DNA from: an uncultured archaeon | GTDB taxonomy: Archaea; Altiarchaeota; Altiarchaeia; IMC4; SCGC-AAA252-I15 | DNA length: 64,000 nt | Assembly: GCA_902384455.1 (NCBI GenBank) | Contig: CABMCB010000071.1 | Coordinates: forward strand, 139,315-203,314 | Direction: 5' to 3' | In this document: positions 319-58,179 of the stretch, piece by piece | Position numbering within the stretch: position 1 is the stretch's first letter | How the letters are laid out: each line of letters begins with the position of its first letter | Position numbers and translations under genes: made by a program | The notes under the pieces: model-generated | Databases searched by the model: none | Seen by the model: the letters and a program-made list of their open reading frames with translations, nothing else | Told to the model about the DNA's origin: nothing

Positions 319-3171
319 TTAGGATAGTGGGCCGGGGTTGTTTTGAGCGCATATTTGGGTGAGGTCGGCTTGTGTGGGGCCTGTGCATCCTGTTTGTGTG
401 CTTGGGCATGTGCCTGTGTATATTTTGGTGCAGCAGCAGTCTTGGTTGCTCCAGCTCCAGCTTTGGGCGGCTGCATAGCGGCATATGTATTGGCATTGTC
501 CGGGGTTTTGGGCTGGTGCTTGGCATGTGCCGTGTGTCACGTATGCTCCTGCGCCGTATCCGTTGCTTGAGCAGTATTGCGGGCAGTTTATCGGGGTTTG
601 GTCGCAGACGTCGCCTGTGCCGTCGCGGTCTGAGTCTTCTTGATTTGGGTTGGGTACTGTGGGGCAGTTGTCTGCTGAGTCAGCTATTCCGTCTCCGTCC
701 TGGTCTGGTATGGCGCAGCGGTAGCATGTTCCTACGTCGGTTTGGAATGGCGTGCATACTGCGCCTTGCGTGCAGCTTAGTTCAGTGCAGCTGCTGGCGA
801 GCGGCACATTGTTGTATTTGTAGTTAGAGCAGGTAGGTTTCGCTTTGCAGTAGTAGCAGGTTTTGCCTTGGTAAGTCGTGGATTCGCAGGTTTCGCTTTG
901 GCTGCAGGAGAGGTCGTTGCAGCTGTCTTGTGTGGCGACTCCGTTGACTTTAAGCACGTCGCTGCAGCTTAATGTGTTGCATTTGTAGCAGGGTCCGTCT
1001 CCGACGATGCCGCAGCGTTGCCAGGGGCTTGCGCATTTTGCGCCGCAGTAGGGGTCACTTAGGTATTGGCCTTGCGGACAGGTTGTGGTGGTTGTTGTGG
1101 GTGCGCAGTAATAGCAGTTTTTGTTGCCTTCCTGGAACCATATGCTTATGCAGCCGTTGGGGCAGTTTTGCGGGCAGGTGTCGTATGTGGGCTGCTGCCT
1201 GTAGAGGAGGTTGCTGCAGTTCATGTAGGTGATGCATTTGCAGTTGACGCACACTTTGCCTGCGGGGCATTCATAGCGTTTTCCTCCCGACCAGCTGTAT
1301 ACTGGGCTGTCGTTGAGGTCGCATTCTTCATCTCCTCCGCCGGCACTTGTGGGCGTGCTAAGCCATCCGTCTCCGCAGCGCGGAGTAACTGTGTGCAGAG
1401 TGGTTGTTGTGGAAGATGTTGTCGTGGTAGTCGAGGTTGTTGTTGACTGCGTCGTGGAGGGAGTGCGTATTGTCGTGGAAGTTGTCGTCGTGGTTATTAC
1501 CGTTTTTGTGGTTGTGGTACGGATTATAGTCGTCGTAGTTGTTTTGGGCGGCGTTTGAGGTTCGTTTTCTTCCGGCACCATATCGTCGTCGCGGTGCAAC
1601 GTGGTGGCGCCCTCAGCCGCGGCCGCTAAGTCCACGCCGGGGTATGCGTCTCCAGTCAAACTTAGGGTTCCAAGTAACGTGGGCGGACTCAAAAGTATCC
1701 CAGTAAGGTAAGAGGCCGATGGCGATTTTGTTGCTATCGCAACTACTTGGCCTGGAAGAATCCCGGACACAAACGTGACGGTCGCTGTGCCGTCGCCTTG
1801 AGACGCGACAGCGATTGGAGTCTGTTTGATTTCTAGCGGATTGAGGTCGACGACGAGGTCTCCGCTTAATGGAATAGATTTGACAATCTTTTGCGCCGGC
1901 ACGTCTATTACGTCCAAATACGATTGCGTTCCCACGTAGACTGGCGCAACCGCGTATCTCCCATCGTCGCTTGTGGCAACATCCACGCTATCTTGGAAAG
2001 TGCCTGAAAGCTTAATTGTCGAAGTATGCGAGCCGGAAACCAAGTCTACTGTGTAAAGATACCCCGTGTTGTTTTCGCGGTCAACAGTAGGCACAAGAGC
2101 CATCTCGTCCTCCGCTCCCTGCCTAACGTCAAGCCCAACCTCCAAGTCACCCGGAAGTTCTGTCGAAACTATGCGGCTTAAATCTGCGAGGTACATTGCG
2201 TTGAGGAGGGTTCGGCCGTCTGTGTGGGTGGGCAGCCACACTTGTTTTCCGTCGCGGCTAAACTCCAGGTCCACCATGCTCTGTAGGGTGCCCTGAACCT
2301 TGGTTTTGCCTGTCACTTCTGGCTTAGATAGGTCTATTGCGTAAAGGGTTGTGTCTGCGCCGTTTGTTAATGCCGCATAAATTTTGCCGTCAGGGCCAAG
2401 CAAAAGGTGGACGTCTTCTACGTAGTTTCCGTCAAGAGTAAGAGTCTTAACGAACGCGGGGCCTGAAACGTCAAAGACGTCTATGTATGCCTCGCTTTTG
2501 TCCGGATTCTGGGACGGAACCGCAACGTAAGCGCCTTTTGCGTCAAAAACCAAGTCAACGTCAGGAACAAAAGCGCCTTTCAAATCAAACCGCTTAACGC
2601 TTGATCCTGAAGCAGAATCAATGAAATCCACGGCTCCCAAGCCGCCGGAAGTAGAAGAAGCAATCACCCGTTTTCCGTCAGGCGTCCACCAGCTGTCCAC
2701 GTCAGTAGTAAGGCCGCTTCCTATTGCGATGTTTTTTATTAGGCTGGCTGATGAGACATCGATTAGGTTGAGATAAGATTGGCCTGTTTCTGTGTTGGTT
2801 GTGGGTAGTGAGGCGGTTTTTCCGTCTGGGCTTAGTTCGGCGTCGACTCCGTTTCTGAGTTTGCCTGGCATGTAGACTGTGGAGATGAGGGTTTTGGTTT
2901 CTGCTGAGAGAATCATGAGGCAGCTTCCTTCTTTGTTTTCTCCGGGAAGCAGGACGGTTTTTCTATCGGGAGTAAACACCAAGTCGACGTCCGCCTTGAG
3001 GCTGCAGGGAACCCAGACTTCCGCCACATTGAAGTCTGAAGGCAACCCTTTTACGGCGGGAACGTTTGCGGCGGGGTTGTTTGACGGCGCATTAGGTTGC
3101 GTCGTGCATCCCGAAACGAAAACAAGCGCAATAGCGAGCAAAAGTCCTAAAACCGTAGTTTGTGTCCTCAT
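319..3171 (-). CDS. Large lipoprotein: N-terminal YVTN-type beta-propeller repeats, poly-Thr linker, C-terminal Cys-rich module with two TSP type-3-like Ca-binding repeats
   Basis: 950-aa ORF with signal peptide and lipobox-like Cys (LVFVSGC). It has repeated SPDGK/TPDGK beta-propeller blades and a long T-rich linker encoded by a GTN-repeat tract. The C-terminal module contains many Cys, [35 protein letters not shown] (a TSP3-like DxDxDGxxDxxDNCP repeat) and a terminal CCCTK motif. Confidence 0.8.
1390..1550 (-). repeat. Imperfect GTN/ACN triplet repeat encoding the poly-Thr linker of the 950-aa lipoprotein
   Basis: The plus strand reads gtggttgttgtggaagatgttgtcgtggtagtcgaggttgttgttgac...; on the coding (minus) strand these are ACN Thr codons. 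Confidence 0.6.
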
Positions 3172-8597: not shown

Positions 8598-10100
8598 ATG
8601 CGTCTCACACACGTATTAGCGATTGCGGCATTAGCAACCGCACTTTTCGCCGCAGGATGCCTCAACGAAAACCCGGAAGCATCCCCCCCAATAAACAACC
8701 TGCAAACGACTACTACGCCGGCCGCAGCAATCAACCTGCATGAGGCTCAATTCGAGGGCGTCATCAGAGCCGGAGTCGGACCGCAGTTTGACGCAACAGG
8801 CAAATCCGTCGCATTACTCCTTTTCACGCCATCTATCCAAAGAACCCGCCTGACTTCCACAGACGTTTCCACAGGAATGGCGAAGGTAGACCTAATAATA
8901 GACGGCGCCCCAGTGAATGGCGTAGGACCAACAGTATACCCAGACGGTTCACTGGTGTATGCGCTTACCCAGAAAGAAGACGGCGCAATACTCTCAGCCG
9001 TGGACGTGTCATCCGGACTCGTCTCAGCGACAGTACGACCACCCGGAGTAGTAGTGCCATACCAGCCCCCAATCCTTGTAGGCGCATTAATCATCATACC
9101 AACCTACTTAGACAACAAAACCCGCATATCAACATACCTCGCCAAAGGCCTCACTCCAGTATGGGACGCGGAATTAGACGGCTTTCCTGCGCCAAGTGTG
9201 GCCCCCCTAATAACAAACGATTACGTGGCGATGGCAGTAAGGAAAGACGACGGCACATCAGTTGTAAACGTCATAGACCCCAAAACCGGGAAAACAACCG
9301 CTCAAACGGCACTCCCACGCGACCTAGTGCCTGGAGCAGGACCCATCGAAATCAGCGCCGGCAAAATAGGGGTAGCGACAGAACACAGCGAAACAGGAGA
9401 CTCCGCATTCACAGCAATAGACGCCTCAACAGGAAACACAATATACGAAGCCCCCCTCGAAGGCGAACTAGTCGGCAGAGTCGCACCAATACAAACCCCA
9501 AACGCCATCATAGTAGCCACAAACACCCAAAAAGGCATAATAACATTCATAAACCCGCAAACAGGCGACCAACAAAAAACATACCTCAACGCACCCATAC
9601 CCCCCGGAATAACACCCCTGCTAACGCCCGACGGAAAAATAGCCGCAGCAACCCAAGCACAAACCGCCGCAATAGAAACAGCAACCCCAGACGGCACAAC
9701 AACAGAAACACCCATATCCGGCAACTACGCCATCCACACAAACATACTCCAAAACGAAGGCCTAATATACGCGTTCACCAACAGAGAAAACGAATCATAC
9801 ATGACCGCAATAAACGAAACCACCGGCAAAATAAAATACCGAAAAGAACTAAACGGCTCAATAGACCCCGCAGTAAAAACAGCACTAACCCACGACGCAA
9901 CAGCATTCGCATACTCACTAGCCCCCGCAATAGCCGCACTAAAAACCGCAAACTTCAACCAAAAAGCAATCGCAATAGCCACAGAAGACGAAACCACAGT
10001 CTACTTCCACCTACTATCCCCCCAAACAGGAGAAACACTCGCACTACAAGAAACACAAGGCCGAATCTGGCCTGCAGTAAGCCCAATAACGCCCTACTAA
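8598..10100 (+). CDS. Secreted lipoprotein, probable beta-propeller (PQQ/BamB-like repeats)
   Basis: 500 aa with signal plus lipobox (LFAAGC), a Thr-rich stretch, and repeated ~40-aa segments rich in G/T/A/V consistent with propeller blades. The overlapping R/N-rich 329-aa ORF in another frame is treated as spurious. Confidence 0.5.
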   Translation: MRLTHVLAIAALATALFAAGCLNENPEASPPINNLQTTTTPAAAINLHEAQFEGVIRAGVGPQFDATGKSVALLLFTPSIQRTRLTSTDVSTGMAKVDLIIDGAPVNGVGPTVYPDGSLVYALTQKEDGAILSAVDVSSGLVSATVRPPGVVVPYQPPILVGALIIIPTYLDNKTRISTYLAKGLTPVWDAELDGFPAPSVAPLITNDYVAMAVRKDDGTSVVNVIDPKTGKTTAQTALPRDLVPGAGPIEISAGKIGVATEHSETGDSAFTAIDASTGNTIYEAPLEGELVGRVAPIQTPNAIIVATNTQKGIITFINPQTGDQQKTYLNAPIPPGITPLLTPDGKIAAATQAQTAAIETATPDGTTTETPISGNYAIHTNILQNEGLIYAFTNRENESYMTAINETTGKIKYRKELNGSIDPAVKTALTHDATAFAYSLAPAIAALKTANFNQKAIAIATEDETTVYFHLLSPQTGETLALQETQGRIWPAVSPITPY

Positions 10101-23951: not shown

Positions 23952-25685
23952 TTAGGCTATCAGTCTGAGCGAAAGCAGGTTCCAGCCTCCATAAAGTAGG
24001 TGGACAAGACTTTCTTGGCAACTGTAAGTGCAGCCTGATGTCCCTGAGTCATTCCATCCGTCAGGCAAACTGCACCTGTTACCGTCTCCTGAAGAAGCGC
24101 CCCAGTCGCTGGAATAAAAGTCTGAGTTAATATTTCCACAAGCTGTGTTTCCATTAAAAACAACATCCGAACCGCTAGCACTAATTCCCCTAAAGCCGTT
24201 CGAGTTCACAGTGTTGTTAACAACCGACACGCCATCAGAATTCAACACATAAATGCCCTGATCCCCGTCGTTCACGGTATTCCCAACAACCAGGCCATCA
24301 GGAGACGACGTTAAATAAACTCCCATGTTCGAAGTAGCACTGACGTTGTTTTGCTCAACAGTATTGTTGCTGGAAAGATACTCATATACCCCCCACCAGC
24401 CAAAATGGACTAAATTGTAGCTCAAATTGTTGTAGTTAGACTGCGTCAAAGAAATCCCCGCACGAGTGTTTGACACCAAAGTACCATTAAGAACCCGATT
24501 ACGCACAGAACTTCCAAAATAAAAACCATCATTATCATTCCCGTTAGCCGTCGGCCTCAAAAAGACGTTGTCTGCGCAGTAATCAAGGTTAAACCCGTGA
24601 TAGTGGCTTGAAGACGTTACGTCCGTGATGTTAGCGCGGTTTGTGTTCAGCATCAAAACGCCGTTATTTTTTATTCCGCTCACGTTAGCGAGAGTAACGT
24701 TTCTGACTACGGCGTCGTCCGCCTGACAAAGAATAAGCTCCGAAACAACCTCATCGCTAACGGTCTCGGCTGAATTCACGAAACGAATCGGGAGGCCCCC
24801 TGTTCCAGTGTTTCCTGTGACTACGCTGTTGCATGTAGTTCCTATAGTGCCGCCTAAATCGTACCTCCCGTTGTATAACATGGTGTTGTCGCTTATGATG
24901 GTGGGCGCATCCCAAAGGTAGACTCCATCCCACAAGTTAGAATTAAAAATGCTGCCTTCAACCCGGTTGTTGTTGGAACGTAAAAAGTAAATTCCGTAGT
25001 AATTGTCGGACGAGTTCACGTCGGTGAAATTTGAGTCATCAGTAACAAACACATCAATTCCATTATTATCTAAACTACTGGACCCTACGACAGTCACATT
25101 CACCACGCTGGAATTATCTGCAGCACACAAAACAAGCTGCGACGCCACTGCATTAGCCAAACTAAACGAAGAATTATAGACTAATATAGGCCTCCCTTCC
25201 GGCCCCATATTATTCTCCATTACGAACATGCACTGTTCCTTGCCGTCTGCCCATACCCTCAAGTCATACCGATTATTCTCTACTAGAGTGTTGTTTCTTA
25301 CAATAAAACCTCTGGGGAAATACAAATTAAGTCCGTTCCAGAAATTGGTCACTTCGCAGTTCTGTATGGTAACATTCTCTTTCGCGTATGCGTATACTCC
25401 ATGGTATTGGCCGCTGCCGTTTATCCAATGGTTCATGCAATCGAAAACTTTGTTGTTGAAATTATCCGGGTTATTAATGCACGAACTGGTGGGGCTTGAA
25501 ACGTCAGAACTCAACCTGACCGTTGTGCAGTTCTCATTATCATTTAAGGCGCTGTTGCAGTCCGAGCAGTTTCCGCAGTCGCACACGCCTCCTCCGATGA
25601 CGTCGTACGCGGAAACTCCCGCAGAAAAGCACGCAAACACAATCAATCCAAGAATTATCGCAAAACGCATGTCCACGAAAAACAT
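23952..25685 (-). CDS. Secreted right-handed parallel beta-helix repeat protein (NosD/PbH1-like)
   Basis: 577 aa with signal peptide. Numerous ~22-aa repeats with N/G/V-rich beta-helix rungs (..NNTLVENNRYDL.., ..GNTVNDGDQGIYV..). Confidence 0.7.
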   Translation of the reverse strand: MFFVDMRFAIILGLIVFACFSAGVSAYDVIGGGVCDCGNCSDCNSALNDNENCTTVRLSSDVSSPTSSCINNPDNFNNKVFDCMNHWINGSGQYHGVYAYAKENVTIQNCEVTNFWNGLNLYFPRGFIVRNNTLVENNRYDLRVWADGKEQCMFVMENNMGPEGRPILVYNSSFSLANAVASQLVLCAADNSSVVNVTVVGSSSLDNNGIDVFVTDDSNFTDVNSSDNYYGIYFLRSNNNRVEGSIFNSNLWDGVYLWDAPTIISDNTMLYNGRYDLGGTIGTTCNSVVTGNTGTGGLPIRFVNSAETVSDEVVSELILCQADDAVVRNVTLANVSGIKNNGVLMLNTNRANITDVTSSSHYHGFNLDYCADNVFLRPTANGNDNDGFYFGSSVRNRVLNGTLVSNTRAGISLTQSNYNNLSYNLVHFGWWGVYEYLSSNNTVEQNNVSATSNMGVYLTSSPDGLVVGNTVNDGDQGIYVLNSDGVSVVNNTVNSNGFRGISASGSDVVFNGNTACGNINSDFYSSDWGASSGDGNRCSLPDGWNDSGTSGCTYSCQESLVHLLYGGWNLLSLRLIA

Positions 25686-38367: not shown

Positions 38368-41300
38368 GTGGTTATACTCATGAAGGTAGTTGCTTCTCCT
38401 GCGTCTTCGGGCGAGGATTTGGACGTGCCTTCAACGTTGCCCGCCCTCGATGAACGCGCCGCCGCCATAGCTCAAAATCTGGCATTGAAATCCGGCAGCC
38501 AGAGGGCGCAGGCTTACCTTCGTAGTTCTGAGGGTCAGCGTGGTCAGGATGGGTCTGGCGTGGGTGACGGATCGGATGATTCTTTTTCTCGCAGGCGCAA
38601 AAGGAGGAAGCAGCCTTTTGAGGGGGTGCCTGAGGAGTTTGCTAGGCGGGCGGCGAAGGATTCTTTCCGAGAGGAAATCTCTTCCTTATCTCAGGCTGAG
38701 TTGGGGCGTCTTGCAGTAACGCTTTCTAAGTACGCTGAAACAGGCATGCCTATCGAGCAGGAACGCGTTGTGGCGGCCTCTGTGGTTGAGCAGTGTCTTT
38801 CACCCGAGGTTTTGGGTCGTTTTGACCGTGAGGCTCTTGTTTCAGAGTGTGTTTCTTTCGGAGGCGTTAGAGGGCATGTTGATGGGGAGGTTGCTGCGCG
38901 TTTAGGTTTGGCTTCTGACGGGAGTGAGGGGGCGTTGGTTAGGGAGGTTGAGGCGGGACTTAGGCGTGCGTCCGAGGTTGTTGGCATTAGGTCTGATTCT
39001 GTGGTTTTTGATGCGGCTAGGGCTTTTGAGTTGGTTGTTCCTTTGATTGGTGATTCTAATGTTTTGCGGGGTGTTTATTCGGAGATTGTCGGTTGGGGCG
39101 TTGGGGGGCGTAGGTTGGAGGGGATTTCGGATGAGAGGGCTCATTTGGCGGGTTTGGTTGTGCGGCGGTTGGATGATTGGGTTAAGCGGGAGTTTGCTTG
39201 CGGGCTTGTAGCTGAAGGGTTTAATCCTCGCTATTCTTCGCGGCGTAGTCTTATTCGGGAGGCGGTGTCTGTCGCTGATTCTTGTAGTGACGGCTCTAGG
39301 ATAGCTGTTGCGGAGGTGCTTTTTGACAGGTTGGGTTCTTTGGAGTCTGATGATTCGTCTTTGAATGCTGCGACAGAGGCGATTGGAGGTGTTCTTTCTG
39401 GCGTAAGGCACGGGAGGGCTGTTGAGGATTTTCTTTCGACTCATGACTTGAGGCTTCATCCTTCGGGTAGGGTCAGGAATGCGTATGCGGTGATGTTGGG
39501 CAACTTAGGTGCGGCTTCGCAAGAGTCGGGAGTTAAGGTTTTGTGCGCAAGCAAGCTTTCGGATCTCTTCGATTTCCCGCCGCATGAAAGAAGGAATACC
39601 GAGCATCATCTTGACGTCTCGGAAGTTCCTTTCACCGCAGGAACCCAGCTTCTGAAGGTAGCCCGTTCCATGGACGACCCGGCAGACTTGATGCCGGTGG
39701 TTGACGGCGTCAGCCGGCACGTAGACCACCCCATAGAATTTGTCAGGGAAAACGCTGCTGCAGTACTTATGGGAATAAGAAGTCACGTCGGAGGACTGGA
39801 TGCTTCGCGGGTTGTGCTATCGGAAGTGGAAGAATCAATGTCTGCCACAATAGGAAGCCACAGAAACGCGTTTCCCGGAAGCGAGCCGCAAGTGGACGCA
39901 ATAAAGAAAGGAGTAGCTCGGGTCATAAGAAAGCACGGGGCCGCAGCGGCAAAATCAGACGACCCGGCCGAAACTCTCGGAAGATTGTCTGAAAGAGTCT
40001 TTGACGGCGTGGAATTCCCAGACACCTATTCGGAAGGATTAACCCGGCTTAAGGCCGCAATCGCGGGAGAACTTGCCGACCAAACGCCTGTATTAAATAA
40101 TCTCGGTTCTACGGCAGACGATTTGAAGGCTCCTGTTCTTGCGCGCATAGACGATGCGTTAGCTCACTATCCTTACCATTTGGCCGGGGATTTGGTGCGG
40201 GAGGATTTAGTCGGCCGTCTTATTGGGCGGGTGAATGCGTCAAAGGGTATGCAGCATTCTGAGTTTGATGGTTCTTTGGTTTATCATAGGCAGTTGGCTG
40301 GTTCTATGGTTTTGGGTATTGCTGATGGGGTTGTGGAGGAGGCGTCTGCGCTTAGGGTTTTGTCGACTTTGCTTTCGAATGTTGCAGGCTATCATGAGTA
40401 TGGGTTGCCTGTGAACGCAAATGAGTTTTCTGAGACTCTGTCGCGGCTTTGTTCGCGCATAAGTTCCTCTGAGGGTGCTGAGGCAGCGGCTGTAATGTTG
40501 TTGGACAGGTGTGACCGCCAGAATTATTACTGGCGTGATGTGCCTTTTGTGGGGCTTGCTTGCGGGATGGCGGGTAAGATTTCGGATTCTGAATCTGCGG
40601 GTAGGGTTCTTCCTGCGTTTGAGCGGGCGGCGAAGGCGTGGCAGCCAAATAATGTCGGAGAGGGGAATTCTGCTTTGGATGAGGTCGTAAGGTTGTGTGC
40701 TTTGTGTCCGCCTCAGAGGCGGGCTCAGGTAATATCCGGCTTAGTCGGTGACGTTCTGGGGAAAAGCGACGAAGACAGATTCCTCGGATTAATATACAAT
40801 GCCCCGTTGACTGCCAGAGCTATCGTGAAAATAGCTTCATTAGGGTCGGCCGAGGAGAGGGTTGAAACTGTGAGGGCTGCTGTGGTGGATGTGGGTAAGG
40901 TTCCTCGCGATGAAAGGGAGTTGTTGATGTACGGTGCGGTGAGGGCGTGTGTTTCAGACGACGAGGTTAAGCAGGTGGCTGCCGCCGCGTCGGAAATACT
41001 TTTTCCAGGCGATAAGAGTAGTCCCATGTACTGTGCAACAACAAGCGCCCGCTCTCTTATGGCCGACAGGAGCGGTTTAAGCAGCAGGGAACCTCCTGTT
41101 GTCGTCGAGTTCGATGAGGCTACGGAGACGGCGAAAAGGTGTGCGTTGCTTATTGAGGATCCTACGGAAAGGTTTACCGCGGCAAAAAACTTTGTTCCAT
41201 CGTACTCCTTCCATGAGGACAGGTATAATGTAGCCGCATTGTCTGCCGCCAACTCTGTGGTGGCGACATTAAATGGGCATGGAGTGCAGGCGGAGTACGC

Positions 41301-43716
41301 GAAAGAACTTCTTAACTCCCTGCGGCACAGGAGCGACAAATACGAGACCTGCCGTTTGATAACCCAGACTGTCTCAGGATTAATTCCGCAGTTCTCGCGG
41401 CAGGAAACACTGGAGTTCCTTGCCGCCCTTCCAGTTGAAATAAGCGCAGTAGAACAAAGAAGAGACCACGCAGGAGTAAGAGGTCAAGTAGCCAAACTTG
41501 CGGCAACAGCATTTGAGGCGTTGGGGCCAGAAGGCCTTCAGGAAGGATTAAACGCGGTATTACAGACGATAGACCACCCGCCTAAAGATTCTCACATAGA
41601 CGCCGAAAGGACTCTCATAGACATAGGGCGGGCTGTGTCGGACGATTCATTGCTTTTGTCGTTCGCCCGCAGAATAGCCCCGAACTTATCCGACCCTTAC
41701 TCTCAACGGAGGGGAGACGCGGCAGAGGCGCTTGCCGAATTCGGAAGCAAAATTCAAAATCCCCAAATTCTTGCGGAACTTGTGGCTTTAATAGAACCCT
41801 CCCGGCAAAGCCCAATATCTGAAATAAGCAGGACCGCCTCCAACACCCTCACCCGCATGAGAGACCTAACTCCTACAGAAGCCGCAGAAAGACGGGCGAT
41901 AATAACCGGCGCACCACCTCCCGCCGAAGTCACAGACGAAAAACGCCTAGCAACACTAAGCGAACTATGCGCCCACCCAACAGCACTCTACCACGACGAG
42001 TCCATACGATGGGTCGAAGAACTAGCAAACGGCCTCAACGACCCCCAGATGAAGGTTACGGCTGCTGAAATGCTTTTGGGCACTGGCCGGCGGAAAACCG
42101 AAAGGAGAATGACAGCTTTGGTTGCCACACTTGTTGAGCCTGAAAAGCTAGACGGGATACTTCAGGAAGCAATAACGGGTCTTTCTGCAGGAGACGGAAG
42201 CAGGGAAACAACGCTTGCAGGCCTAAGCGAACTCGGGGCGCTTGTGCCCTACTGCAGAAACCCGCATATTCTTGCTCAAGTCTCACAGATGAGGGACGGC
42301 CTGATCATGAGTTTGTGCGAGGCGAGAAAATTGAGTTCCGTGGAAGTGGGCGCTATAAGCCGCATTTTAGAGGAGACTTCGGCTGCCGGAGTCAGCGGCG
42401 AGTTGATGAATGCTTTCAGCGCGGTGGAGATGCCTTATGACGCAGGGTCCCTTCGTCTGATATCCGAACTCGCCTTCTGGACAGGCTCAAAAATAGTTCC
42501 CGGAACCCTGCCGGCATACTGCACCCTAGACAGAAGCTCATTCATATTCAGCCCTCAATCACAGGAAGCAGGATACACGGAAACCGTCTTAGCCTCCCTT
42601 AAGGAAACAGTCGAACTGGGGCTCATAACGGAGAAAGGCCTAGGATACGACCTGCCGATAAAGGATCCGCGGTATAAAATAGGAAACGCCTTCCACGGAA
42701 GAAGCTCCTTCTCCATAAGCGAACCCACCCAAGGAGACACCTCATCTTACGCCCGCGTATTCAAGGCAAACGGCACATACTACGGAACAGACGGAATAAG
42801 CTTCCAATGGCGAGGAGGCCAAAACGAAATCCACCTCGAAGTCCACATGTTCTGGGGAGGAGACATACTCAAACTAAGCGACATACAAGCAAGAAACGCA
42901 TTGCGCATAAGAAAAGGACTAAACGACCTATACAACCAAGGCGACCCCCACATACGCCGTGCGGTAGAAGAATTCGGCGCATTCCCGATAACAGAAGACG
43001 GAATAAACCCCGACGCAATATACCAACCATTCGGCCAATTCAAACCCCAATTCATACCTCAATGGCTAAACCCTGAAGAAAGCAAAACAGGCGAAAGCAT
43101 AGGGAGAATAAGAAACATACGACACAGAGACGGCCTAAGCATAGCAGGAGTGCCGGACGAATACATAAGAGGCCACAGGATAATCGGATACATAGTGCCG
43201 GTGCCGGAGCGCGTAGGCGAACTGACCCCTATAGGGCAGGCAGATGCCGCCTGGGTTAAAACGTTTTCCTACTGCGGATACCAGCTGATACGCCAGCCAG
43301 GCCAAATTCCTCGCGTAATGAAAGACGGGCAGGAAGTCGAATACAGGGAAGCAGCCCGTGAAGTGCTTTATGGATTCGCCTCCCGGTGGGCCTCAGTAAA
43401 CTATTACGTGCACCACATACTCAACGGGGCTCTATCTAACGACTTCGGATCCGTATACGACGATGAACAAAAGCACAACTCTGGGTTCTGCCTGCATGAC
43501 TTGGACGTAGCATGGGCCGGCGACCAGTACGATGCCATGCACAACCGCACTCCCACAAGCAAGCCCACACTAAGCAACTCACGAGAATACTACCAGCGGG
43601 AAGACGACAGAAACGCCCTCCAACTTCTGGACTACATCGCCGGGCTGCTTAGGGTGCCGGAAATGCACCAAGAAGCGCAAAACATATTCCTGGAAATAAA
43701 CCCCCCATCAAGGTAA
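38368..43716 (+). CDS. Giant cytoplasmic HEAT/ARM-repeat protein (1782 aa) with unassigned ~400-aa C-terminal globular domain
   Basis: Single uninterrupted ORF. It may start with GTG at 38368 or ATG at 38380, and has no signal peptide or TM. Residues ~1-1350 are Ala/Leu/Arg/Glu-rich with many PBS-lyase-type HEAT units (e.g. GDAAEALAEFGSKIQNPQILAELVALIEP). The C-terminal domain is compositionally different and contains FSYCGYQL ... YVHHILNGALSNDFG ... CLHDLDVAWAGDQYD. Confidence 0.75.
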   Translation: MVILMKVVASPASSGEDLDVPSTLPALDERAAAIAQNLALKSGSQRAQAYLRSSEGQRGQDGSGVGDGSDDSFSRRRKRRKQPFEGVPEEFARRAAKDSFREEISSLSQAELGRLAVTLSKYAETGMPIEQERVVAASVVEQCLSPEVLGRFDREALVSECVSFGGVRGHVDGEVAARLGLASDGSEGALVREVEAGLRRASEVVGIRSDSVVFDAARAFELVVPLIGDSNVLRGVYSEIVGWGVGGRRLEGISDERAHLAGLVVRRLDDWVKREFACGLVAEGFNPRYSSRRSLIREAVSVADSCSDGSRIAVAEVLFDRLGSLESDDSSLNAATEAIGGVLSGVRHGRAVEDFLSTHDLRLHPSGRVRNAYAVMLGNLGAASQESGVKVLCASKLSDLFDFPPHERRNTEHHLDVSEVPFTAGTQLLKVARSMDDPADLMPVVDGVSRHVDHPIEFVRENAAAVLMGIRSHVGGLDASRVVLSEVEESMSATIGSHRNAFPGSEPQVDAIKKGVARVIRKHGAAAAKSDDPAETLGRLSERVFDGVEFPDTYSEGLTRLKAAIAGELADQTPVLNNLGSTADDLKAPVLARIDDALAHYPYHLAGDLVREDLVGRLIGRVNASKGMQHSEFDGSLVYHRQLAGSMVLGIADGVVEEASALRVLSTLLSNVAGYHEYGLPVNANEFSETLSRLCSRISSSEGAEAAAVMLLDRCDRQNYYWRDVPFVGLACGMAGKISDSESAGRVLPAFERAAKAWQPNNVGEGNSALDEVVRLCALCPPQRRAQVISGLVGDVLGKSDEDRFLGLIYNAPLTARAIVKIASLGSAEERVETVRAAVVDVGKVPRDERELLMYGAVRACVSDDEVKQVAAAASEILFPGDKSSPMYCATTSARSLMADRSGLSSREPPVVVEFDEATETAKRCALLIEDPTERFTAAKNFVPSYSFHEDRYNVAALSAANSVVATLNGHGVQAEYAKELLNSLRHRSDKYETCRLITQTVSGLIPQFSRQETLEFLAALPVEISAVEQRRDHAGVRGQVAKLAATAFEALGPEGLQEGLNAVLQTIDHPPKDSHIDAERTLIDIGRAVSDDSLLLSFARRIAPNLSDPYSQRRGDAAEALAEFGSKIQNPQILAELVALIEPSRQSPISEISRTASNTLTRMRDLTPTEAAERRAIITGAPPPAEVTDEKRLATLSELCAHPTALYHDESIRWVEELANGLNDPQMKVTAAEMLLGTGRRKTERRMTALVATLVEPEKLDGILQEAITGLSAGDGSRETTLAGLSELGALVPYCRNPHILAQVSQMRDGLIMSLCEARKLSSVEVGAISRILEETSAAGVSGELMNAFSAVEMPYDAGSLRLISELAFWTGSKIVPGTLPAYCTLDRSSFIFSPQSQEAGYTETVLASLKETVELGLITEKGLGYDLPIKDPRYKIGNAFHGRSSFSISEPTQGDTSSYARVFKANGTYYGTDGISFQWRGGQNEIHLEVHMFWGGDILKLSDIQARNALRIRKGLNDLYNQGDPHIRRAVEEFGAFPITEDGINPDAIYQPFGQFKPQFIPQWLNPEESKTGESIGRIRNIRHRDGLSIAGVPDEYIRGHRIIGYIVPVPERVGELTPIGQADAAWVKTFSYCGYQLIRQPGQIPRVMKDGQEVEYREAAREVLYGFASRWASVNYYVHHILNGALSNDFGSVYDDEQKHNSGFCLHDLDVAWAGDQYDAMHNRTPTSKPTLSNSREYYQREDDRNALQLLDYIAGLLRVPEMHQEAQNIFLEINPPSR

Positions 43717-43731
43717 GGCGCAATAAATCAT

Positions 43732-44904
43732 CTACGCCAAAGATTTCGCTATCTCCTTCTCCGCCTTCTCCTGCAGAGGATTGGTTACTGCGTCTTCCGC
43801 AGCAAACATCACCTTCTGGACGGCGGTAGGGTGGGTTCGAGCGTACCTATCCCTGCACTCGTCCCTGAATTCCCCGATTGATAAACTGTCGCAGACGCTT
43901 ACGTTCATCGTGTTGACTGCAACGTCGCCAACGCAATCAATATGATTATCAAAATCCTTAACTTTGTCGCACAATTCAGGACGCTTCCACTTAGACGCCA
44001 CTGCGACAACGCACTCTTTGTACTCCTCAGGGTAACTCCCCATCTTACCACAGTACAATTCATTCCCTCTATCCGCCGCAACCGCCGTAAAACAAGCGCC
44101 GCTACCCCCCTCAAAATTAGATATAGGAAGCAGGGAGTTGTTGACCTTATTGCAAGACTCCGGGTCTGCGGCGTTAATGCCGACATGCAGATAACACCGG
44201 TTGGCGTCAAACTCATTCGTAAGATTACTGCAGGCCTCAGGATTCCTCCCAATAGAAGCAAGACAAAGCGATTTGTCACTCCCCCCAAGCTTGTTGCAGA
44301 CGCCTGCCTCCCTAGTTGAAAGGCCTACCTGCAGGTTGCATTTGTCGCGGGTGTATGCGCCTTCGATTTTGTCGCATAGGTCTGTGCTGTTGGCGTTGGT
44401 GCCTGAGTACCCGTAGCAGTCGTCTTTGAGGTCTTTAGAGTTTATCTTGTTGCAGAGTTCTGGTTTGTTGTGGAATTTTCCTATGCGCCCCAGGCAGGCA
44501 TCGCGGCTTGATTCGTCAGTCAGCTGTTCGCACATGGAGGAGTCACCTTTGGAGAAGGCGACGTCACCCAGACAGGACTCTGCGTCGCTCTTTTTAGGGA
44601 ACTTCTCGCATATCGCAGGATCCTTGTTCCTCGTCGCCGCATTAGTAAGGCACTGTGTCTGACGGGTATCATCAGGAAACAGGCTACATTTGTCGGGGTC
44701 GTCTATTATGCTGCCTAATGAATTAAGGCACTCCTCCCGGTCACTAGTATAATTGTGTTGGAGGCATATTCGCGGGTCCTCGGAATCCAAGGCTTTCTGG
44801 GTTATTGGGTCGTGCTCCTCAAAGCAGCCCGAAGCAAAAACAACGATTAAAACGGCGGCAAACGCCGTCCACACCCCCCTAGCGGGATGACGAGCGGTTG
44901 CCAT
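43732..44904 (-). CDS. Lipoprotein composed of ~12 tandem Cys-pair repeats (same family as 34606-34920)
   Basis: 390 aa, signal plus lipobox (VVFASGC). Repeating ~24-aa unit D-P-x-x-C-x-x-(I/L/F)-x(6-8)-(R/K/S)-D-x-C-(Y/L)-x-x-(V/I/A), e.g. DPRICLQHNYTSDREECL, DPAICEKFPKKSDAESCL, STDLCDKIEGAYTRDKCN. Confidence 0.65.
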   Translation of the reverse strand: MATARHPARGVWTAFAAVLIVVFASGCFEEHDPITQKALDSEDPRICLQHNYTSDREECLNSLGSIIDDPDKCSLFPDDTRQTQCLTNAATRNKDPAICEKFPKKSDAESCLGDVAFSKGDSSMCEQLTDESSRDACLGRIGKFHNKPELCNKINSKDLKDDCYGYSGTNANSTDLCDKIEGAYTRDKCNLQVGLSTREAGVCNKLGGSDKSLCLASIGRNPEACSNLTNEFDANRCYLHVGINAADPESCNKVNNSLLPISNFEGGSGACFTAVAADRGNELYCGKMGSYPEEYKECVVAVASKWKRPELCDKVKDFDNHIDCVGDVAVNTMNVSVCDSLSIGEFRDECRDRYARTHPTAVQKVMFAAEDAVTNPLQEKAEKEIAKSLA

Positions 44905-44910
44905 ACGGGC

Positions 44911-45450
44911 TCAGTCGATTACGGCGCCGTACTCCTTAACCATGTCGCGGGTGCGCTTAGCGGCCTTAGTCGCATCCTCAGGGGTCTTGGCGCCCGTGAT
45001 AATAATGCGTCCTGACCGGAATATTAGCATCACCGTCTTGGGTTTGTCGAGTCGGAAAACAAGGCCTGGAAACTGCTCCGGCTCATACTCGGTATTCTCT
45101 GCTTCCATCGCCAAGACGTCCAGGTTCACTTTGACGTTCATTGACGCGGAAGCCACAATGTTTTGAATCTCAACAAGAGGCGTCTCAGAAACGCGCATTC
45201 CAGCGCCCCTAAGCTTGGAAAGAAGCTGCTTTAGGGCGGCGTTTATGTCGTCGATGTTTCTGGCTCCGCTGCAGATGACTTTGCCCGTGCGGAACACAAG
45301 CATAGCCACCTTAGGCTTCTGAAGCCTGTAAATAACCCCCGGAAACTTATTCGGGTTCTCAATCTCAGGCACGGCCTTAGTCAGCTTCTCCAAGTCTATG
45401 TTGCGGTAAAGCGTGATAGACGAGACGATGTTTTCGATGTTGGGCTTCAT
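44911..45450 (-). CDS. tbp: TATA-box binding protein
   Basis: 179 aa with two direct TBP repeats (..LVFRTGKVICSGA.. and ..MLIFRSGRIIITGA..). Confidence 0.9.
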   Translation of the reverse strand: MKPNIENIVSSITLYRNIDLEKLTKAVPEIENPNKFPGVIYRLQKPKVAMLVFRTGKVICSGARNIDDINAALKQLLSKLRGAGMRVSETPLVEIQNIVASASMNVKVNLDVLAMEAENTEYEPEQFPGLVFRLDKPKTVMLIFRSGRIIITGAKTPEDATKAAKRTRDMVKEYGAVID

Positions 45451-49066: not shown

Positions 49067-51304
49067 TTAGCCTCTTTCGTCTTCTTTTTGCTGGGGATTC
49101 CTTTCTTCGTCGGCATCTTCGCCCTCCGTCAACGACTGACCTATCGATAACGATATGTGTTTCGGCCTTATATTAGCGTTTGCATGCGGCTTGCGCTCCT
49201 TGACGTGTTCCACGGCCTGCTCCACCTGCTCCTTCATGTGCATTACGTAAGGCTCCTCCCCTGCGTGTTCAAGATGCGATTCGCCTTCAGAGCCCTTGAA
49301 AGCCTTGTAAGAAAGTGACGTGACAGTAAGCATCGCAAGCCCCAGAATCCCAAGGACTACTGCGACTACTCCGACGCGGATGCCCCAGTAAGTGATTAAT
49401 GCGCGCCTATACGCCCAACGTATGCCGTCAACGGTAGCGCGGCCTTCCTCAACGCTTGCGATTCCTTTTTCGTCTCCCAGCGCTCTGTACGAAGTTTCCG
49501 CTCCGTCAAGAAGCGCGTACGCTTCGTCGTAGCTTTCGTTTCCTGCCGCGGAAACAGCGCGGGAAATGGATGTCTGAGCGTCTTTGCCCATGAGGGCGAG
49601 ATTCTGGACTGCAAGAGCATCCTGACTTGTGTTCTCCATCTCAATGAACTGGTACGCGGAAACGGCCATCGCCGCCCACTCGCTCGCATTCAAGTAGTCT
49701 CCTGCGGCATAAGCCTCTCTTGCGTTGGCCAGATATATTCCTGCCCTCGGATAACTGCGGGCGTAATTGACAAGGTGTGTGGCCTGCGTTATTAACTGCA
49801 TGTCGCCCAGCTTCTGATAAAGGTCCAATGCGGCCTGACCTGTTTTTTCGGCGTTGGCGTAGTCGTTTTGGTTGAGGTACGAGGCCGCCTCGTTGTACTT
49901 TGCGTCGGCGGTCATCCTGTCTGATATGCGGGTGAGCATCCGCCCGCTCTCAAGCAAACCCACGTTGTCTCCTGAATTCTTGAAGAAGTCGTTCGCTTGA
50001 GAAGCCAAATCCTTCGCCTTGGCGAAGCTCATGTTCCTGTAGGCGTCCTCAGACGCTCTCAGTAGCACAGTCGCCCTCTTCTGCTGCATGTAAGGCTTGG
50101 TGTCGAATCCGCGTACTCTCTGGTCCGTGCCGCTTGTGACGACATCCAAGTAACTGTCGCCGTTGAAGTCACCCGCCTTAAGTGCGGTTATGGGACTCAT
50201 CTTGTCCGAACTCCATATTAAGCCGCCTGTTTTGTTTAGGATGCGAAGTCTGTCTGAGCCGACTATTACTTCCGGCGATCCGTCGCCTTCAACGTCAGCA
50301 AGAGCAATTCCTCCCACAGGCCCTGAACCAGCATAACCCCAAAGTCTGTTGCCGCTGCCGTCGAAAGCGTAAACCACGCTGCCTGCGGCGACAATATCCT
50401 TATTTCCGTCGCCGTTAAGGTCGACCAAAATAACCCCTTTGACTGAACCTGAAACATTAGCCTCAAACCTAAGGGAGCCGTCGTGGTTCAAAACGTCGAT
50501 TTCATCCTGGAGGCCGGCCACAATCTCAGGTTGGCCGTCGCCGTCCAAGTCGCCTGCCTGCACAGTATACGAGCCCATGGAGGCCTGATACCTCCAAAGT
50601 ATTCCTTTTACTGTGTCTATTGCGACTATGGGTGCGGGTCCGTTGTAAGTCAGGCTGCGGCTTCCTCCTGTGGGGTCGAGTCTTGTTGCCGAGTTCACTC
50701 CGTTCTTGACGAACCCCGCTATCACCTCGTCTTTTCCGTCGCCGTTGACGTCGGCGCTTGTGAAAGTCAGAGGTGCTTCGTACATGGAAAACCCTATGGA
50801 GTTTATCCGCCCTCCGTTGTTGTCAACAATGAATACGCTGTTTCCGCTCAACCCCCCGGAAGTCCCAATCACCGATTCGGTCTTACCGTCCTTGTTAAAG
50901 TCCGCTGCATACAAACCGCGGCCGTCCGCGTATGTGGCGAAGCTCCATTTTTTGTCGCCTACTGAGTTGAATGCGTGGACGTATACTGGGGACCCCATGA
51001 GTATTGTCGCTTGGCCGTCGGGGTCGTTTGCGGCGAAGCTGTTGTACATTAGGCTGCCTATGAGTCTGCTCCACGCTAAGGAGCCGTTGGCTTCAAGTGC
51101 GTAGAATGTTCCTCCGCGGGTGGAGTCGACAAGAATCAGGGATCTGCCGTCGTACTGGTATGTGTTGATGTTTTTGTTGGCTTCTGAGAGGGCATAAACC
51201 CAAGTGGGCGTCAGAATCACGTCAGTCGATTTCGTAGCCGCAGCTGCGGCGTACGGAGTGAGCATTAAGGCGCACAAGACCGCCAGAAGAAGCAACTTAT
51301 GCAT
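49067..51304 (-). CDS. Type I membrane protein with FG-GAP/VCBS beta-propeller ectodomain and helical (TPR-like) juxtamembrane region
   Basis: 745 aa with signal peptide. Repeats include DVNGDGKDEVIAG, DLDGDGQPEIVAG, DLNGDGNKDIVAAG, DVEGDGSPEVIVG and GDFNGDSYLDVVTSG (integrin-alpha-like Ca-binding FG-GAP blades). Single TM and an acidic cytoplasmic tail. Confidence 0.7.
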   Translation of the reverse strand: MHKLLLLAVLCALMLTPYAAAAATKSTDVILTPTWVYALSEANKNINTYQYDGRSLILVDSTRGGTFYALEANGSLAWSRLIGSLMYNSFAANDPDGQATILMGSPVYVHAFNSVGDKKWSFATYADGRGLYAADFNKDGKTESVIGTSGGLSGNSVFIVDNNGGRINSIGFSMYEAPLTFTSADVNGDGKDEVIAGFVKNGVNSATRLDPTGGSRSLTYNGPAPIVAIDTVKGILWRYQASMGSYTVQAGDLDGDGQPEIVAGLQDEIDVLNHDGSLRFEANVSGSVKGVILVDLNGDGNKDIVAAGSVVYAFDGSGNRLWGYAGSGPVGGIALADVEGDGSPEVIVGSDRLRILNKTGGLIWSSDKMSPITALKAGDFNGDSYLDVVTSGTDQRVRGFDTKPYMQQKRATVLLRASEDAYRNMSFAKAKDLASQANDFFKNSGDNVGLLESGRMLTRISDRMTADAKYNEAASYLNQNDYANAEKTGQAALDLYQKLGDMQLITQATHLVNYARSYPRAGIYLANAREAYAAGDYLNASEWAAMAVSAYQFIEMENTSQDALAVQNLALMGKDAQTSISRAVSAAGNESYDEAYALLDGAETSYRALGDEKGIASVEEGRATVDGIRWAYRRALITYWGIRVGVVAVVLGILGLAMLTVTSLSYKAFKGSEGESHLEHAGEEPYVMHMKEQVEQAVEHVKERKPHANANIRPKHISLSIGQSLTEGEDADEERNPQQKEDERG

Positions 51305-56517: not shown

Positions 56518-58179
56518 TCAGAACAATCCCTTGATGTTTCCGTTTTCCTCAATGTCTATGTCCAACGCCGCAGGATGCTCAGGCAAACCTGGCATAGTAA
56601 CTATGTCCCCGCACGTCACCACGATGAATCCCGCACCAGCACTGATGCGCACGTCCGTGACGCGGATTTTGAAATCAACGGGGCGGCCTGTTTTTGTGGG
56701 GTCGTCCGACAGACTCTTTTGGGTTTTAGCCATGCAGACTGGAAGCCGGTCGAGTTTTTCCTTTATGATGCCGTCCAGGTCCTTAAGCGCCTTGTCCGTG
56801 TACTTCACGGCCTTCGCTCCGTACATTTCTTTGGCTATGCGCTCAATCTTCGCTTTAAGTGGGTCTGAAGTTTTGTAGAGGAAACGGAAACTGTTTTTCT
56901 TTTCAAACAGCTCCAAAATCTCTTTCGCAATCTTAAGTCCGCCCAATCCTCCTTTACCCCACACGTCCACTTCCACGGCGGCGACACCCAAACTGCGGCA
57001 GCCCTCGACCACAGCGTTGATTTCCTCCTTGCTGTCTCCCCTGAATTTGTTTACCGCCACAACCAAAGGCACGCCGAATTTCTGAATGTTTTCGATGTGC
57101 TTTTCTAGGTTGGCGAACCCGCGCTGCACAGCATCAACGTCCTTCTTAGAGTAATCCTCCGCGCTCCCGTGCATCCTAAGCGCCCTTATTGTGGCGACAA
57201 TCACGACCGCGTTAGGCCTAAGTCCCCCAATCCTGCATTTGATGTCAAAGAACTTTTCGGCACCCAACTCAGTCCCGAAGCCCGCCTCAGTCACGACAAC
57301 ATCACCCAGCTTCAAAGCAATCTTGGTCGCAATCAAACTGTTGCAACCGTGAGCAATGTTGGCGAAAGGGCCCCCGTGAATCAAAGCGGGCGTACCCTCA
57401 AGAGTCTGCACCAAATTAGGGTGAATCGCATGCTTCAAAAGAGCAGCCATGGCGCCCTCAACGCCCAAATCGCGGACATGAACCGGCTTCCCGAAGTAAG
57501 TATATCCGATGATTATGTCGCCAAGGCGACGCTTCAAATCAGTAATAGACTCAGCAAGACACAATACGGCCATGACTTCGCTTGCCGCAGTAATCTGGAA
57601 TCCGTCCTCCCGCGGAATGCCTTCTTTGATTCCGCCCATCCCCACGAAAATGTGTCGTAGGCTTCTGTCGTTCATGTCGATTGCCCGCCGCCACATAATC
57701 CTGCGGGGGTCAATTTGAAGAGAATTCCCGTGCTGAAGATGGTTGTCGATGATTGCCGAAAGCAAATTGTTGGCCGCGGTGACTGCGTGAATGTCGCCCG
57801 TGAAATGGAGGTTGATGTCTTCCATAGGGAGCACCTGACTGAACCCTCCGCCGGCAGCGCCACCCTTTATGCCGAAGCATGGCCCTAAGCTCGGTTCGCG
57901 GATGCATATGACCGCTGGAATGCCCATCCTGTTGAACGCCTGGCCTAATCCCACTGTTACGGTGGTTTTTCCTTCGCCTGCGGGGGTGGGTGTCATGCAG
58001 GTTACGAGAACAAGCTTGCCGGTGGGGTTGCTTTTGAGGCGGGAAAGAGAGTGGATGTTAACTTTCGCCATGTAGTCGCCGAAGTAGGCGACTTCGCCCT
58101 CCTTCAAACCCAATTCGCTAGCGACGTCGCTTATATGCCTAAGAGCGGCAGTCTGAGCAATCTCAATATCAGATGGCAT
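56518..58179 (-). CDS. fhs: Formate--tetrahydrofolate ligase
   Basis: 553 aa. [16 protein letters not shown]-loop and full-length FTHFS similarity. Confidence 0.9.

Follow-up and report, generated by a model that had tools for sequence, protein, structure and literature searches.

A 26-residue cysteine-pair repeat in an exported, predicted alpha-solenoid protein of an uncultured archaeon

Results

A 390-residue protein with an export signal and twelve cysteine-pair units

We analysed a 64,000-nucleotide stretch of DNA from an uncultured archaeon of the Altiarchaeota (contig CABMCB010000071.1, positions 139,315 to 203,314 of the forward strand; assembly GCA_902384455.1), referred to here as the window. 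At 43732–44904 on the minus strand, an open reading frame (ORF; coordinates as called, stop codon included) encodes a 390-amino-acid (aa) cysteine-pair repeat lipoprotein, P0001, whose sequence is identical to that of VVB53709.1, listed at NCBI on a 248-kb contig as ‘Uncharacterised protein [uncultured archaeon]’. The N-terminus of P0001 reads MATARHPARG-VWTAFAAVLIVVFA-SGC, in which a positively charged n-region precedes the hydrophobic segment VWTAFAAVLIVVFA, and Cys27 ends a lipobox-like FASGC (x-S-G-C) directly after the hydrophobic stretch. This signal peptide and lipobox, assigned from the sequence, occupy residues 1–27 (44824–44904, minus strand), for which AlphaFold2 (AF2) predicts a helix at residues 10–25 with a low predicted local distance difference test score (pLDDT). 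P0001 therefore combines a signal peptide, with its positive n-region and hydrophobic h-region, with a lipobox cysteine, as in a prokaryotic membrane lipoprotein and, judged by this N-terminal signal and lipobox, it is an exported, extracytoplasmic protein. Three segments follow on the same strand: a cysteine-free N-terminal cap, FEEHDPITQKALDS, at residues 28–41 (44782–44823; AF2 helix at 33–41); a 12-unit repeat array at residues 42–358 (43831–44781), identified from the sequence and modelled by AF2 with pLDDT mostly above 90; and a cysteine-free C-terminal tail at residues 359–390 (43735–43830), modelled as a single helix at 359–389 with pLDDT of about 55 and weakly conserved among orthologues.

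Beyond Cys27, P0001 has 24 cysteines (residues 47, 59, 73, 85 ... 338, 350), and their spacings alternate between 12 and 14. Nineteen of the 24 adjacent Cys–Cys gaps equal 12 or 14; when the sequence was shuffled 100,000 times, the mean number of such gaps was 1.4 and the maximum 9. When P0001 is cut five residues ahead of each odd-numbered cysteine, 12 units result; nine are exactly 26 aa long, unit 7 has 22 aa, unit 10 has 27 aa, and unit 9 carries an 8-aa loop insertion. Identity between units at non-cysteine positions was 14.7%, versus 6.0 ± 0.8% in shuffled controls. Chance or a compositional artefact as the source of the repeat was ruled out by these shuffle tests. An earlier reading of the window, made from the letters alone (the sequence-only reading), had described about 12 copies of a unit of about 24 aa with two cysteines at fixed spacing; the copy number and the spacing stand, but the period has to be corrected to 26 aa, since nine of the 12 units have that length. 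Tandem Repeats Finder detected no DNA-level tandem repeat in the gene, indicating that the array is old and diverged; this result also ruled out a recent repeat expansion and an assembly artefact.

The family consensus, x-D-P-x-[LI]-C-x-x-I-x5-[KR]-D-x-C-Y-x-x-[VI]-A-x3, was drawn from 1094 units of 153 collected proteins, and the D-P-x-x-C ... [KR]-D-x-C motif picked out in the sequence-only reading proved to be this consensus. We built a unit hidden Markov model (HMM) on these canonical 26-aa units, P0001's own among them, and ran it against the six-frame translation of the window. Only two ORFs matched: P0001 (full-sequence E 8e-38, with 13 HMM domains) and a 104-aa lipoprotein, VVB53699.1, encoded at 34606–34920 on the plus strand (E 1.1e-9). 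Both proteins show the C-x11-C-x13 periodicity and the consensus, and this search revealed no further family member in the window. The unit boundaries, on whose reproducibility the sequence-only reading had staked its repeat, hold both inside P0001 and across the family.

The repeat family is large and is found in archaea and bacteria

We searched 1.84 billion cluster representatives (clusters at 50% identity) with phmmer, which yielded 2554 matches at E ≤ 1e-3, 638 at E ≤ 1e-10 and six at E ≤ 1e-30. Cysteine spacings in the best 150 matches were dominated by 14 (1768 occurrences) and 12 (1494), the next commonest occurring 276 times. Word-indexed profile searches with two family alignments returned 11 and 4 proteins, and a single-protein query of species genomes found no relative. 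Taxonomic names rest on about seven proteins, with all named members annotated ‘hypothetical’: P0003, P0013 and P0173 (P0043 cluster) are from Candidatus Altiarchaeales, P0015 and P0020 from Candidatus Diapherotrites (DPANN), and P0168 from Candidatus Parcubacteria (candidate phyla radiation, CPR). Two more loci appear bacterial by their neighbours, which are PG_binding_1 and PlsY at one and Lgt at the other. With 2554 clusters at 50% identity, CPR bacteria included, the family is a large one and extends beyond the archaea.

Export signals recur throughout the family. A hydrophobic N-terminus is present in 138 of the 153 family proteins, at least 75 of which also have a lipobox-like motif, and x-S-G-C is kept in the orthologues of P0001 and is common at N-termini across the family. 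In some members the array is joined to other domains: an arylsulfotransferase-like (ASST-like) beta-propeller in P0002 and P0003 and, elsewhere, bacterial TSP3, SdrD_B, fn3 and CarboxypepD_reg domains, all of extracellular types.

The best orthologues of P0001 are from Altiarchaeales; together with the window's TATA-binding protein gene and the NCBI name, they are the basis for its lineage. P0005, P0013, P0036 and P0146 form an orthologue group that shares the lipobox, an (E)DP(I/V)xxEA cap, 12 units, a shortened unit 7 and a C-terminal tail; the cap motif aligns in these four proteins and in the P0043 cluster, and the cap is thus conserved in orthologues. When the units of P0001 were compared with those of P0005, nine of 12 matched the unit of the same index best. 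This correspondence, together with the shared 12-unit layout, indicates that the repeat number is fixed in the 390-aa orthologue group. P0005 (VVB53572.1, 386 aa) is a full-length paralogue, 35% identical and with the same 12-unit layout, that is encoded on the same 248-kb contig outside the window, about 137 genes from the 390-aa gene by accession numbering.

Each unit is predicted to form a short-plus-long helix hairpin

AF2 modelled P0001 as an alpha-solenoid with a mean pLDDT of 85 and 247 residues at 90 or above. In the DSSP assignment of this model, helices of 4–7 residues alternate with helices of 10–15 residues, in phase with the cysteine pattern. Within the modelled unit, Asp-Pro forms a helix N-cap (Asp at position 2) and is followed by a 6-residue helix that contains Cys1 (position 6), a 3-residue loop, and a 14–15-residue helix in which Cys2 (position 18) is at about the seventh residue. 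Hydrophobic residues are conserved at positions 5 and 9 of the short helix and at positions 19, 22 and 23 of the long helix. These positions form an i, i+3, i+4 core stripe, with both cysteines on or next to it, and we infer that Cys1 and Cys2 face each other in the core. The 104-aa protein was modelled as three short-plus-long helix hairpins with a pLDDT of 77.7. Hence, in both predictions (pLDDT 85 and 77.7), each unit consists of a short and a long helix, stacked as a solenoid. The extracellular solenoid of helical hairpins proposed in the sequence-only reading is supported to this extent: AF2 predicts a solenoid with one hairpin per unit, and the signal peptide and lipobox place the protein outside the cytoplasm.

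Cysteine spacings at array ends define the C-x11-C module

We examined arrays that end with no cysteine within the adjoining 30 residues. The terminal spacing was 12 at 24 of 26 starts and 65 of 68 ends (89 of 94 in total), indicating that C-x11-C is an indivisible module. The N-cap helix of P0001 lacks cysteine, consistent with C-x11-C as the pair. Exactly 24 cysteines, an even count, follow the lipobox cysteine in all five orthologues, and, across the 153 proteins, only about three of the gaps flanked by 12/14 spacings are compatible with one lost cysteine. We also tested for co-loss of the two cysteines. Both were present in all 1517 HMM-detected units, a circular result because the HMM was built from units that have both; a version based on spacing gave few losses, with three cases versus one. 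The most economical reading of the sequence pattern is that one intra-unit Cys1–Cys2 disulfide would staple the short helix to the long helix.

Sequence and fold searches return no known family

Our comparison with known families covered Pfam-A, NCBIfam, PDB sequences, and PDB and BFVD folds. P0001 matched nothing in Pfam-A or NCBIfam, even at E ≤ 10; the 104-aa protein gave only a meaningless match, to a snake-toxin model at E 4.9. When 87 homologues were compared with Pfam, no family was common to more than one protein. The repeat is accordingly not assignable to a known Pfam repeat family, an outcome that the sequence-only reading had named as the way in which its claim of novelty could fail. 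Profile searches of PDB chain sequences were empty at E ≤ 1 with a full-length profile and at E ≤ 10 with a three-unit profile. With the P0001 model as query, Foldseek matched nothing in PDB or BFVD at E ≤ 1e-3. The best E value in PDB was 1.6e-3, with a template modelling (TM) score of 0.11, and the top TM score was 0.37; the weak matches were all to TPR, Sel1, HEAT, ANK or designed helical repeats. With a three-unit model, the best E value in PDB was 1.8. Full-text literature searches on the repeat and on the host lineages turned up no description of the repeat, and only generic mentions of exported cysteine-rich CPR proteins. Overall, the repeat family is new in sequence, unit length and cysteine pattern, and belongs to a well-known architectural class, the helical-hairpin solenoids.

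A second family member adjoins a VIT1-family transporter gene

A separate lipobox, ASGC (Cys20), is present in the 104-aa protein, whose residues 28–104 (34687–34917) comprise three 26-aa units, with cysteine pairs C33/C45, C59/C71 and C85/C97. When the protein was aligned with three-unit segments of other proteins, 50 in all, no column was invariant except those of the six cysteines. The exact 26-aa register, together with the HMM match, bears out the earlier proposal that this lipoprotein is built of the same unit. A VIT1-family Fe/Mn transporter gene (34922–35650) follows, with one base in between, the stop codon of the 104-aa gene, which ends at 34920; upstream of the 104-aa gene lies an AT-rich, TATA-like region at about 34530–34570, and the two genes look like one operon behind it.

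The sequence-only reading had also counted a remnant at 35670–35771 as a copy of the unit. The 43-codon ORF at this position (35640–35771, plus strand) lacks any complete unit, and its match to the repeat HMM falls short of significance (E 7.1). It consists instead of a hydrophobic segment, a cysteine and CKPNVNxxLCY, and partly duplicates the 104-aa gene's 5' end, with which it shares an 18-nucleotide exact run, TGCAAGCCTAACGTAAAC, and 12 of 19 identical residues (CxSxCKPNVNxxLCY; pairwise E 3e-8). Of the family of at least two members plus a remnant that had been proposed, the two members in the window remain, and the remnant is a copied gene fragment rather than a unit. The VIT1 gene is flanked by the 104-aa gene on one side and by the copy of its 5' fragment on the other, an arrangement suggestive of duplication or rearrangement at this site, around the transporter gene.

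Other genes near the family members and elsewhere in the window

On the side of its start codon, the 390-aa gene is adjoined by a TATA-binding protein (TBP) gene on the same strand (44904–45450, minus strand; PF00352, E 5e-55), whose stop lies 6 nucleotides before the start of the 390-aa gene; co-transcription of TBP with a surface lipoprotein would be odd. On the other side, an ORF of 1782 aa (38368–43716, plus strand; GTG start as called) converges on the 390-aa gene, with 15 nucleotides between the stop codons. It has no Pfam match at E ≤ 0.01, and its exact sequence is absent from a 15-billion-protein collection.

Downstream of the VIT1 gene lies a gene for a 622-aa cysteine-rich protein (35755–37623, plus strand) with a hydrophobic N-terminus, CG[ND]G[IVK]C motifs (YCGNGVCDAGENG, YCGDGICETWENE, CGDGICAKRPNG and CGDGKCVYADA) and no Pfam or NCBIfam match. 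A similar motif, CGNGICE, is found at the start of family member P0042. The 622-aa protein may be another unannotated extracellular cysteine-rich module. Divergent from the 104-aa gene is an apparent operon (29467–34496, minus strand), in which a 154-aa ORF that appears helix-turn-helix-like by eye (weak Pfam matches) overlaps a MacB/LolD-type ABC ATPase gene by 14 nucleotides; genes for a 434-aa NEW3-domain protein and two MacB_PCD+FtsX permeases complete it.

Large predicted surface proteins are numerous in the window (319–3171, 8598–10100, 23952–25685 and 49067–51304): they include a TSP3-repeat protein of 950 aa, a PQQ_2 beta-propeller, a NosD/beta-helix protein and an FG-GAP protein. A formate-tetrahydrofolate ligase gene (56518–58179, minus strand) encodes a protein whose homologues in 80 species genomes, nearly all of them bacterial and chiefly of Bacillota and Clostridia, are 54–60% identical to it; none of the best 80 loci is in an archaeal genome, a pattern that would fit a gene of bacterial type here, and the comparison gave no information on the lineage of the window. 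At the locus of the orthologue P0013 (Altiarchaeales WJMO01000006.1, 9107–16623), a dense oxidative-stress island lies alongside, with rubredoxin, flavodiiron-type, glutaredoxin, thioredoxin-reductase-like, ferritin, desulfoferrodoxin and rubrerythrin genes.

Discussion

We consider it probable that P0001 is an alpha-solenoid located outside the cytoplasm and anchored by a lipid, in which twelve 26-residue hairpins are each stapled by a disulfide, and that it acts as a rigid binding or scaffold module of the cell envelope. A Sec-type signal peptide would export the protein, and the lipobox cysteine, Cys27, would probably carry the lipid anchor. Beyond Cys27, a cysteine-free capping helix would be followed by the twelve helix-loop-helix units and a C-terminal tail helix. 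In each unit, one Cys1–Cys2 disulfide is proposed to pin the short helix on the long helix, and these staples would lend extracellular stability to a helical repeat that is unusually short. The exposed surface would be made up of the variable, mainly polar and acidic positions, and P0001 could thereby act at the envelope as a rigid module for binding or scaffolding, a role that we propose from this architecture.

Several points weigh against this interpretation. The AF2 model of P0001 was computed from a multiple sequence alignment of only 13 sequences, and the model of the 104-aa protein is not fully independent, because its alignment was put in register by hand. The case for the disulfide is assembled from sequence logic and array-end statistics, with both cysteines on the hydrophobic stripe. 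Altiarchaeales, DPANN and CPR organisms live in habitats that are mostly anoxic and often sulfidic, where extracellular disulfides are less secure, and we identified no disulfide-forming enzyme in the window. Likewise, lipidation of Cys27 is proposed from the lipobox. Gene context offers little help: across the loci of eight other members, we found no conserved neighbourhood and no partner that would indicate a ligand, and the position of the 390-aa gene next to that of TBP says nothing about function.

The cysteine pairs could instead be metal or iron-sulfur ligands. In that case the protein would be a lipoprotein that binds or buffers metal outside the cytoplasm, its thiolate pairs arranged as a ladder along the solenoid. 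The hosts are anaerobes, in which thiols would remain reduced; the 104-aa gene lies upstream of the VIT1-family Fe/Mn transporter gene with one base in between, and an Fe/Mn superoxide dismutase gene is 5.5 kb from the 390-aa gene. We retain this alternative because a ZIP permease gene lies three genes downstream of the Diapherotrites member P0015 and the Altiarchaeales orthologue P0013 adjoins the island with rubredoxin, ferritin and desulfoferrodoxin genes. However, five other neighbourhoods (P0159, P0003, P0014, P0006 and P0161) contain no metal-related genes, so that the link to metal transporters is anecdotal. The unit itself also argues against a metal site: it has only two cysteines and no conserved histidine; the conserved aspartates are at the helix N-cap (position 2) and at position 16, within the long helix and two residues before Cys2; both cysteines are on the hydrophobic core stripe; and the pairs of adjacent units would be about one repeat rise apart, too far for a shared tetrahedral site. 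We therefore regard metal binding as distinctly unlikely. A separate alternative, which concerns the anchor only, is that P0001 is exported without lipid modification, being released or else retained by a signal anchor that is not cleaved, and that the apparent lipobox is a signal-peptidase I-type region beside a cysteine. Lipoprotein biogenesis in archaea is poorly characterised and lineage-dependent, and some family members, P0002, P0003 and P0008 among them, have a plain N-terminal transmembrane helix and no lipobox. Against this, x-S-G-C stands right after the hydrophobic stretch in five of five orthologues and in many distant members, and the lipobox cysteine alone is left over once the other 24 are paired, as expected for lipid attachment. 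On this evidence, an unlipidated P0001 seems unlikely.

It is highly improbable that the repeat is a strongly diverged member of a known alpha-solenoid family, such as Sel1-like/Hcp, TPR, HEAT-like or the 24-residue LRV repeats. Such an origin would fit the predicted helical-hairpin architecture and the identity of the weak Foldseek matches, which are all to repeats of this kind, and Hcp proteins are likewise secreted, cysteine-rich and disulfide-stabilised (PMC3851747). Nevertheless, no Sel1, TPR, HEAT or LRV match was obtained in Pfam at E ≤ 10 and none recurs among the 87 homologues; the PDB profile searches were empty, and the Foldseek scores given above, for the whole model and the three-unit module alike, were poor. 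In addition, a 26-aa unit falls below the range of about 30–47 aa of the eight main alpha-solenoid subfolds, and its cysteine spacing differs from that of Hcp.

If P0001 is the stapled solenoid that we favour, a 26-residue hairpin with one disulfide per unit would be among the shortest natural alpha-solenoid units, and a scaffold this compact and stable could be of interest for protein engineering. Pfam-A, NCBIfam and PDB do not cover the family, which comprises at least 2,500 clusters at 50% identity, and with a profile for the repeat, thousands of proteins would receive an annotation as exported scaffolds of helical repeats. The repeat alone reveals no new mechanism and resolves no long-standing question. 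CPR, DPANN and Altiarchaeales account for a large share of uncultured diversity, and their surface proteins, mostly annotated as hypothetical, are thought to mediate attachment and symbiosis. More speculatively, and with considerable doubt, the 26-residue cysteine-stapled hairpin might be a distinct, undescribed class of alpha-solenoid, shorter than the recognised helical-hairpin repeats, and a principal envelope or attachment module shared by the ultra-small or episymbiotic CPR and DPANN organisms and Altiarchaeales, having spread by inter-domain transfer and binding the surfaces of hosts or partners.

Comparison with known systems

As in TPR and HEAT-like solenoids, antiparallel helix pairs in the P0001 model form a superhelical stack with a hydrophobic core stripe and variable surface positions. 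Classical TPR and HEAT-like units are longer than 26 aa, and units of the eight main alpha-solenoid subfolds measure roughly 30–47 aa; classical alpha-solenoids are not known to have a conserved cysteine pair, and most are cytoplasmic. No TPR, HEAT, ANK or ARM Pfam repeat profile matched P0001, and the fold matches were weak and generic (TM ≤ 0.37). The LRV repeat (PF01816) is a cytoplasmic 24-residue alpha/3-10 helix repeat in which a longer and a shorter helix alternate. The repeat described here is similarly a very short helical repeat (26 versus 24 aa) with alternating longer and shorter helices; LRV is not known to have a cysteine pair, gave no Pfam match and was absent among the top 50 Foldseek matches. 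The cited portion of an alpha-solenoid review recognises eight main subfolds, gives 30–34 as the range of the ankyrin unit, and contains no mention of disulfides (PMC11514114).

Large, exported cysteine-rich proteins have been noted in CPR bacteria, specifically in Peregrinibacteria; their function is unknown, and rigidity or attachment was proposed (PMC4736985). These proteins are weakly similar to Myxococcus cysteine-rich repeats and FG-GAP (PMC4736985). Compared by description only, they differ from the family reported here in that no 26-aa C-x11-C-x13 helical repeat is defined for them (PMC4736985). We found no NCBIfam or Pfam match to the Myxococcus cysteine-rich repeat or DUF4215-type models for the 390-aa, 104-aa or 622-aa proteins.

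The closest parallel is with the Hcp proteins of Helicobacter (HcpB and HcpC), which are secreted, cysteine-rich Sel1-like solenoids in which disulfides lock the repeat geometry, each bridging the end of a repeat and the beginning of its successor (PMC3851747). P0001 shares with Hcp and other Sel1-like (PF08238) proteins a secreted or periplasmic alpha/alpha-hairpin solenoid, a conserved cysteine pair in each repeat and a modular repeat number. By contrast, the cysteine pair of the repeat described here lies within the short-helix/long-helix hairpin, as indicated by the array-end statistics, the 26-aa unit combines helices of 6 and about 15 residues, and the taxa are Altiarchaeales, DPANN and CPR. 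The Sel1-like repeat is about 36 aa long, with two helices similar in length, and the cysteine spacing of Hcp also differs. Consistent with these differences, the Sel1 profile PF08238 did not match the 26-aa-period array at E ≤ 10 and did not recur among the 87 homologues, and the Hcp structures 1KLX and 1OUV were absent among the top 50 Foldseek matches and from the PDB profile search, which was empty. P0001 thus resembles Hcp but lies outside that family by profile match, unit length and fold superposition, and, by analogy with Hcp, we propose that it may act as a generic protein-binding scaffold.

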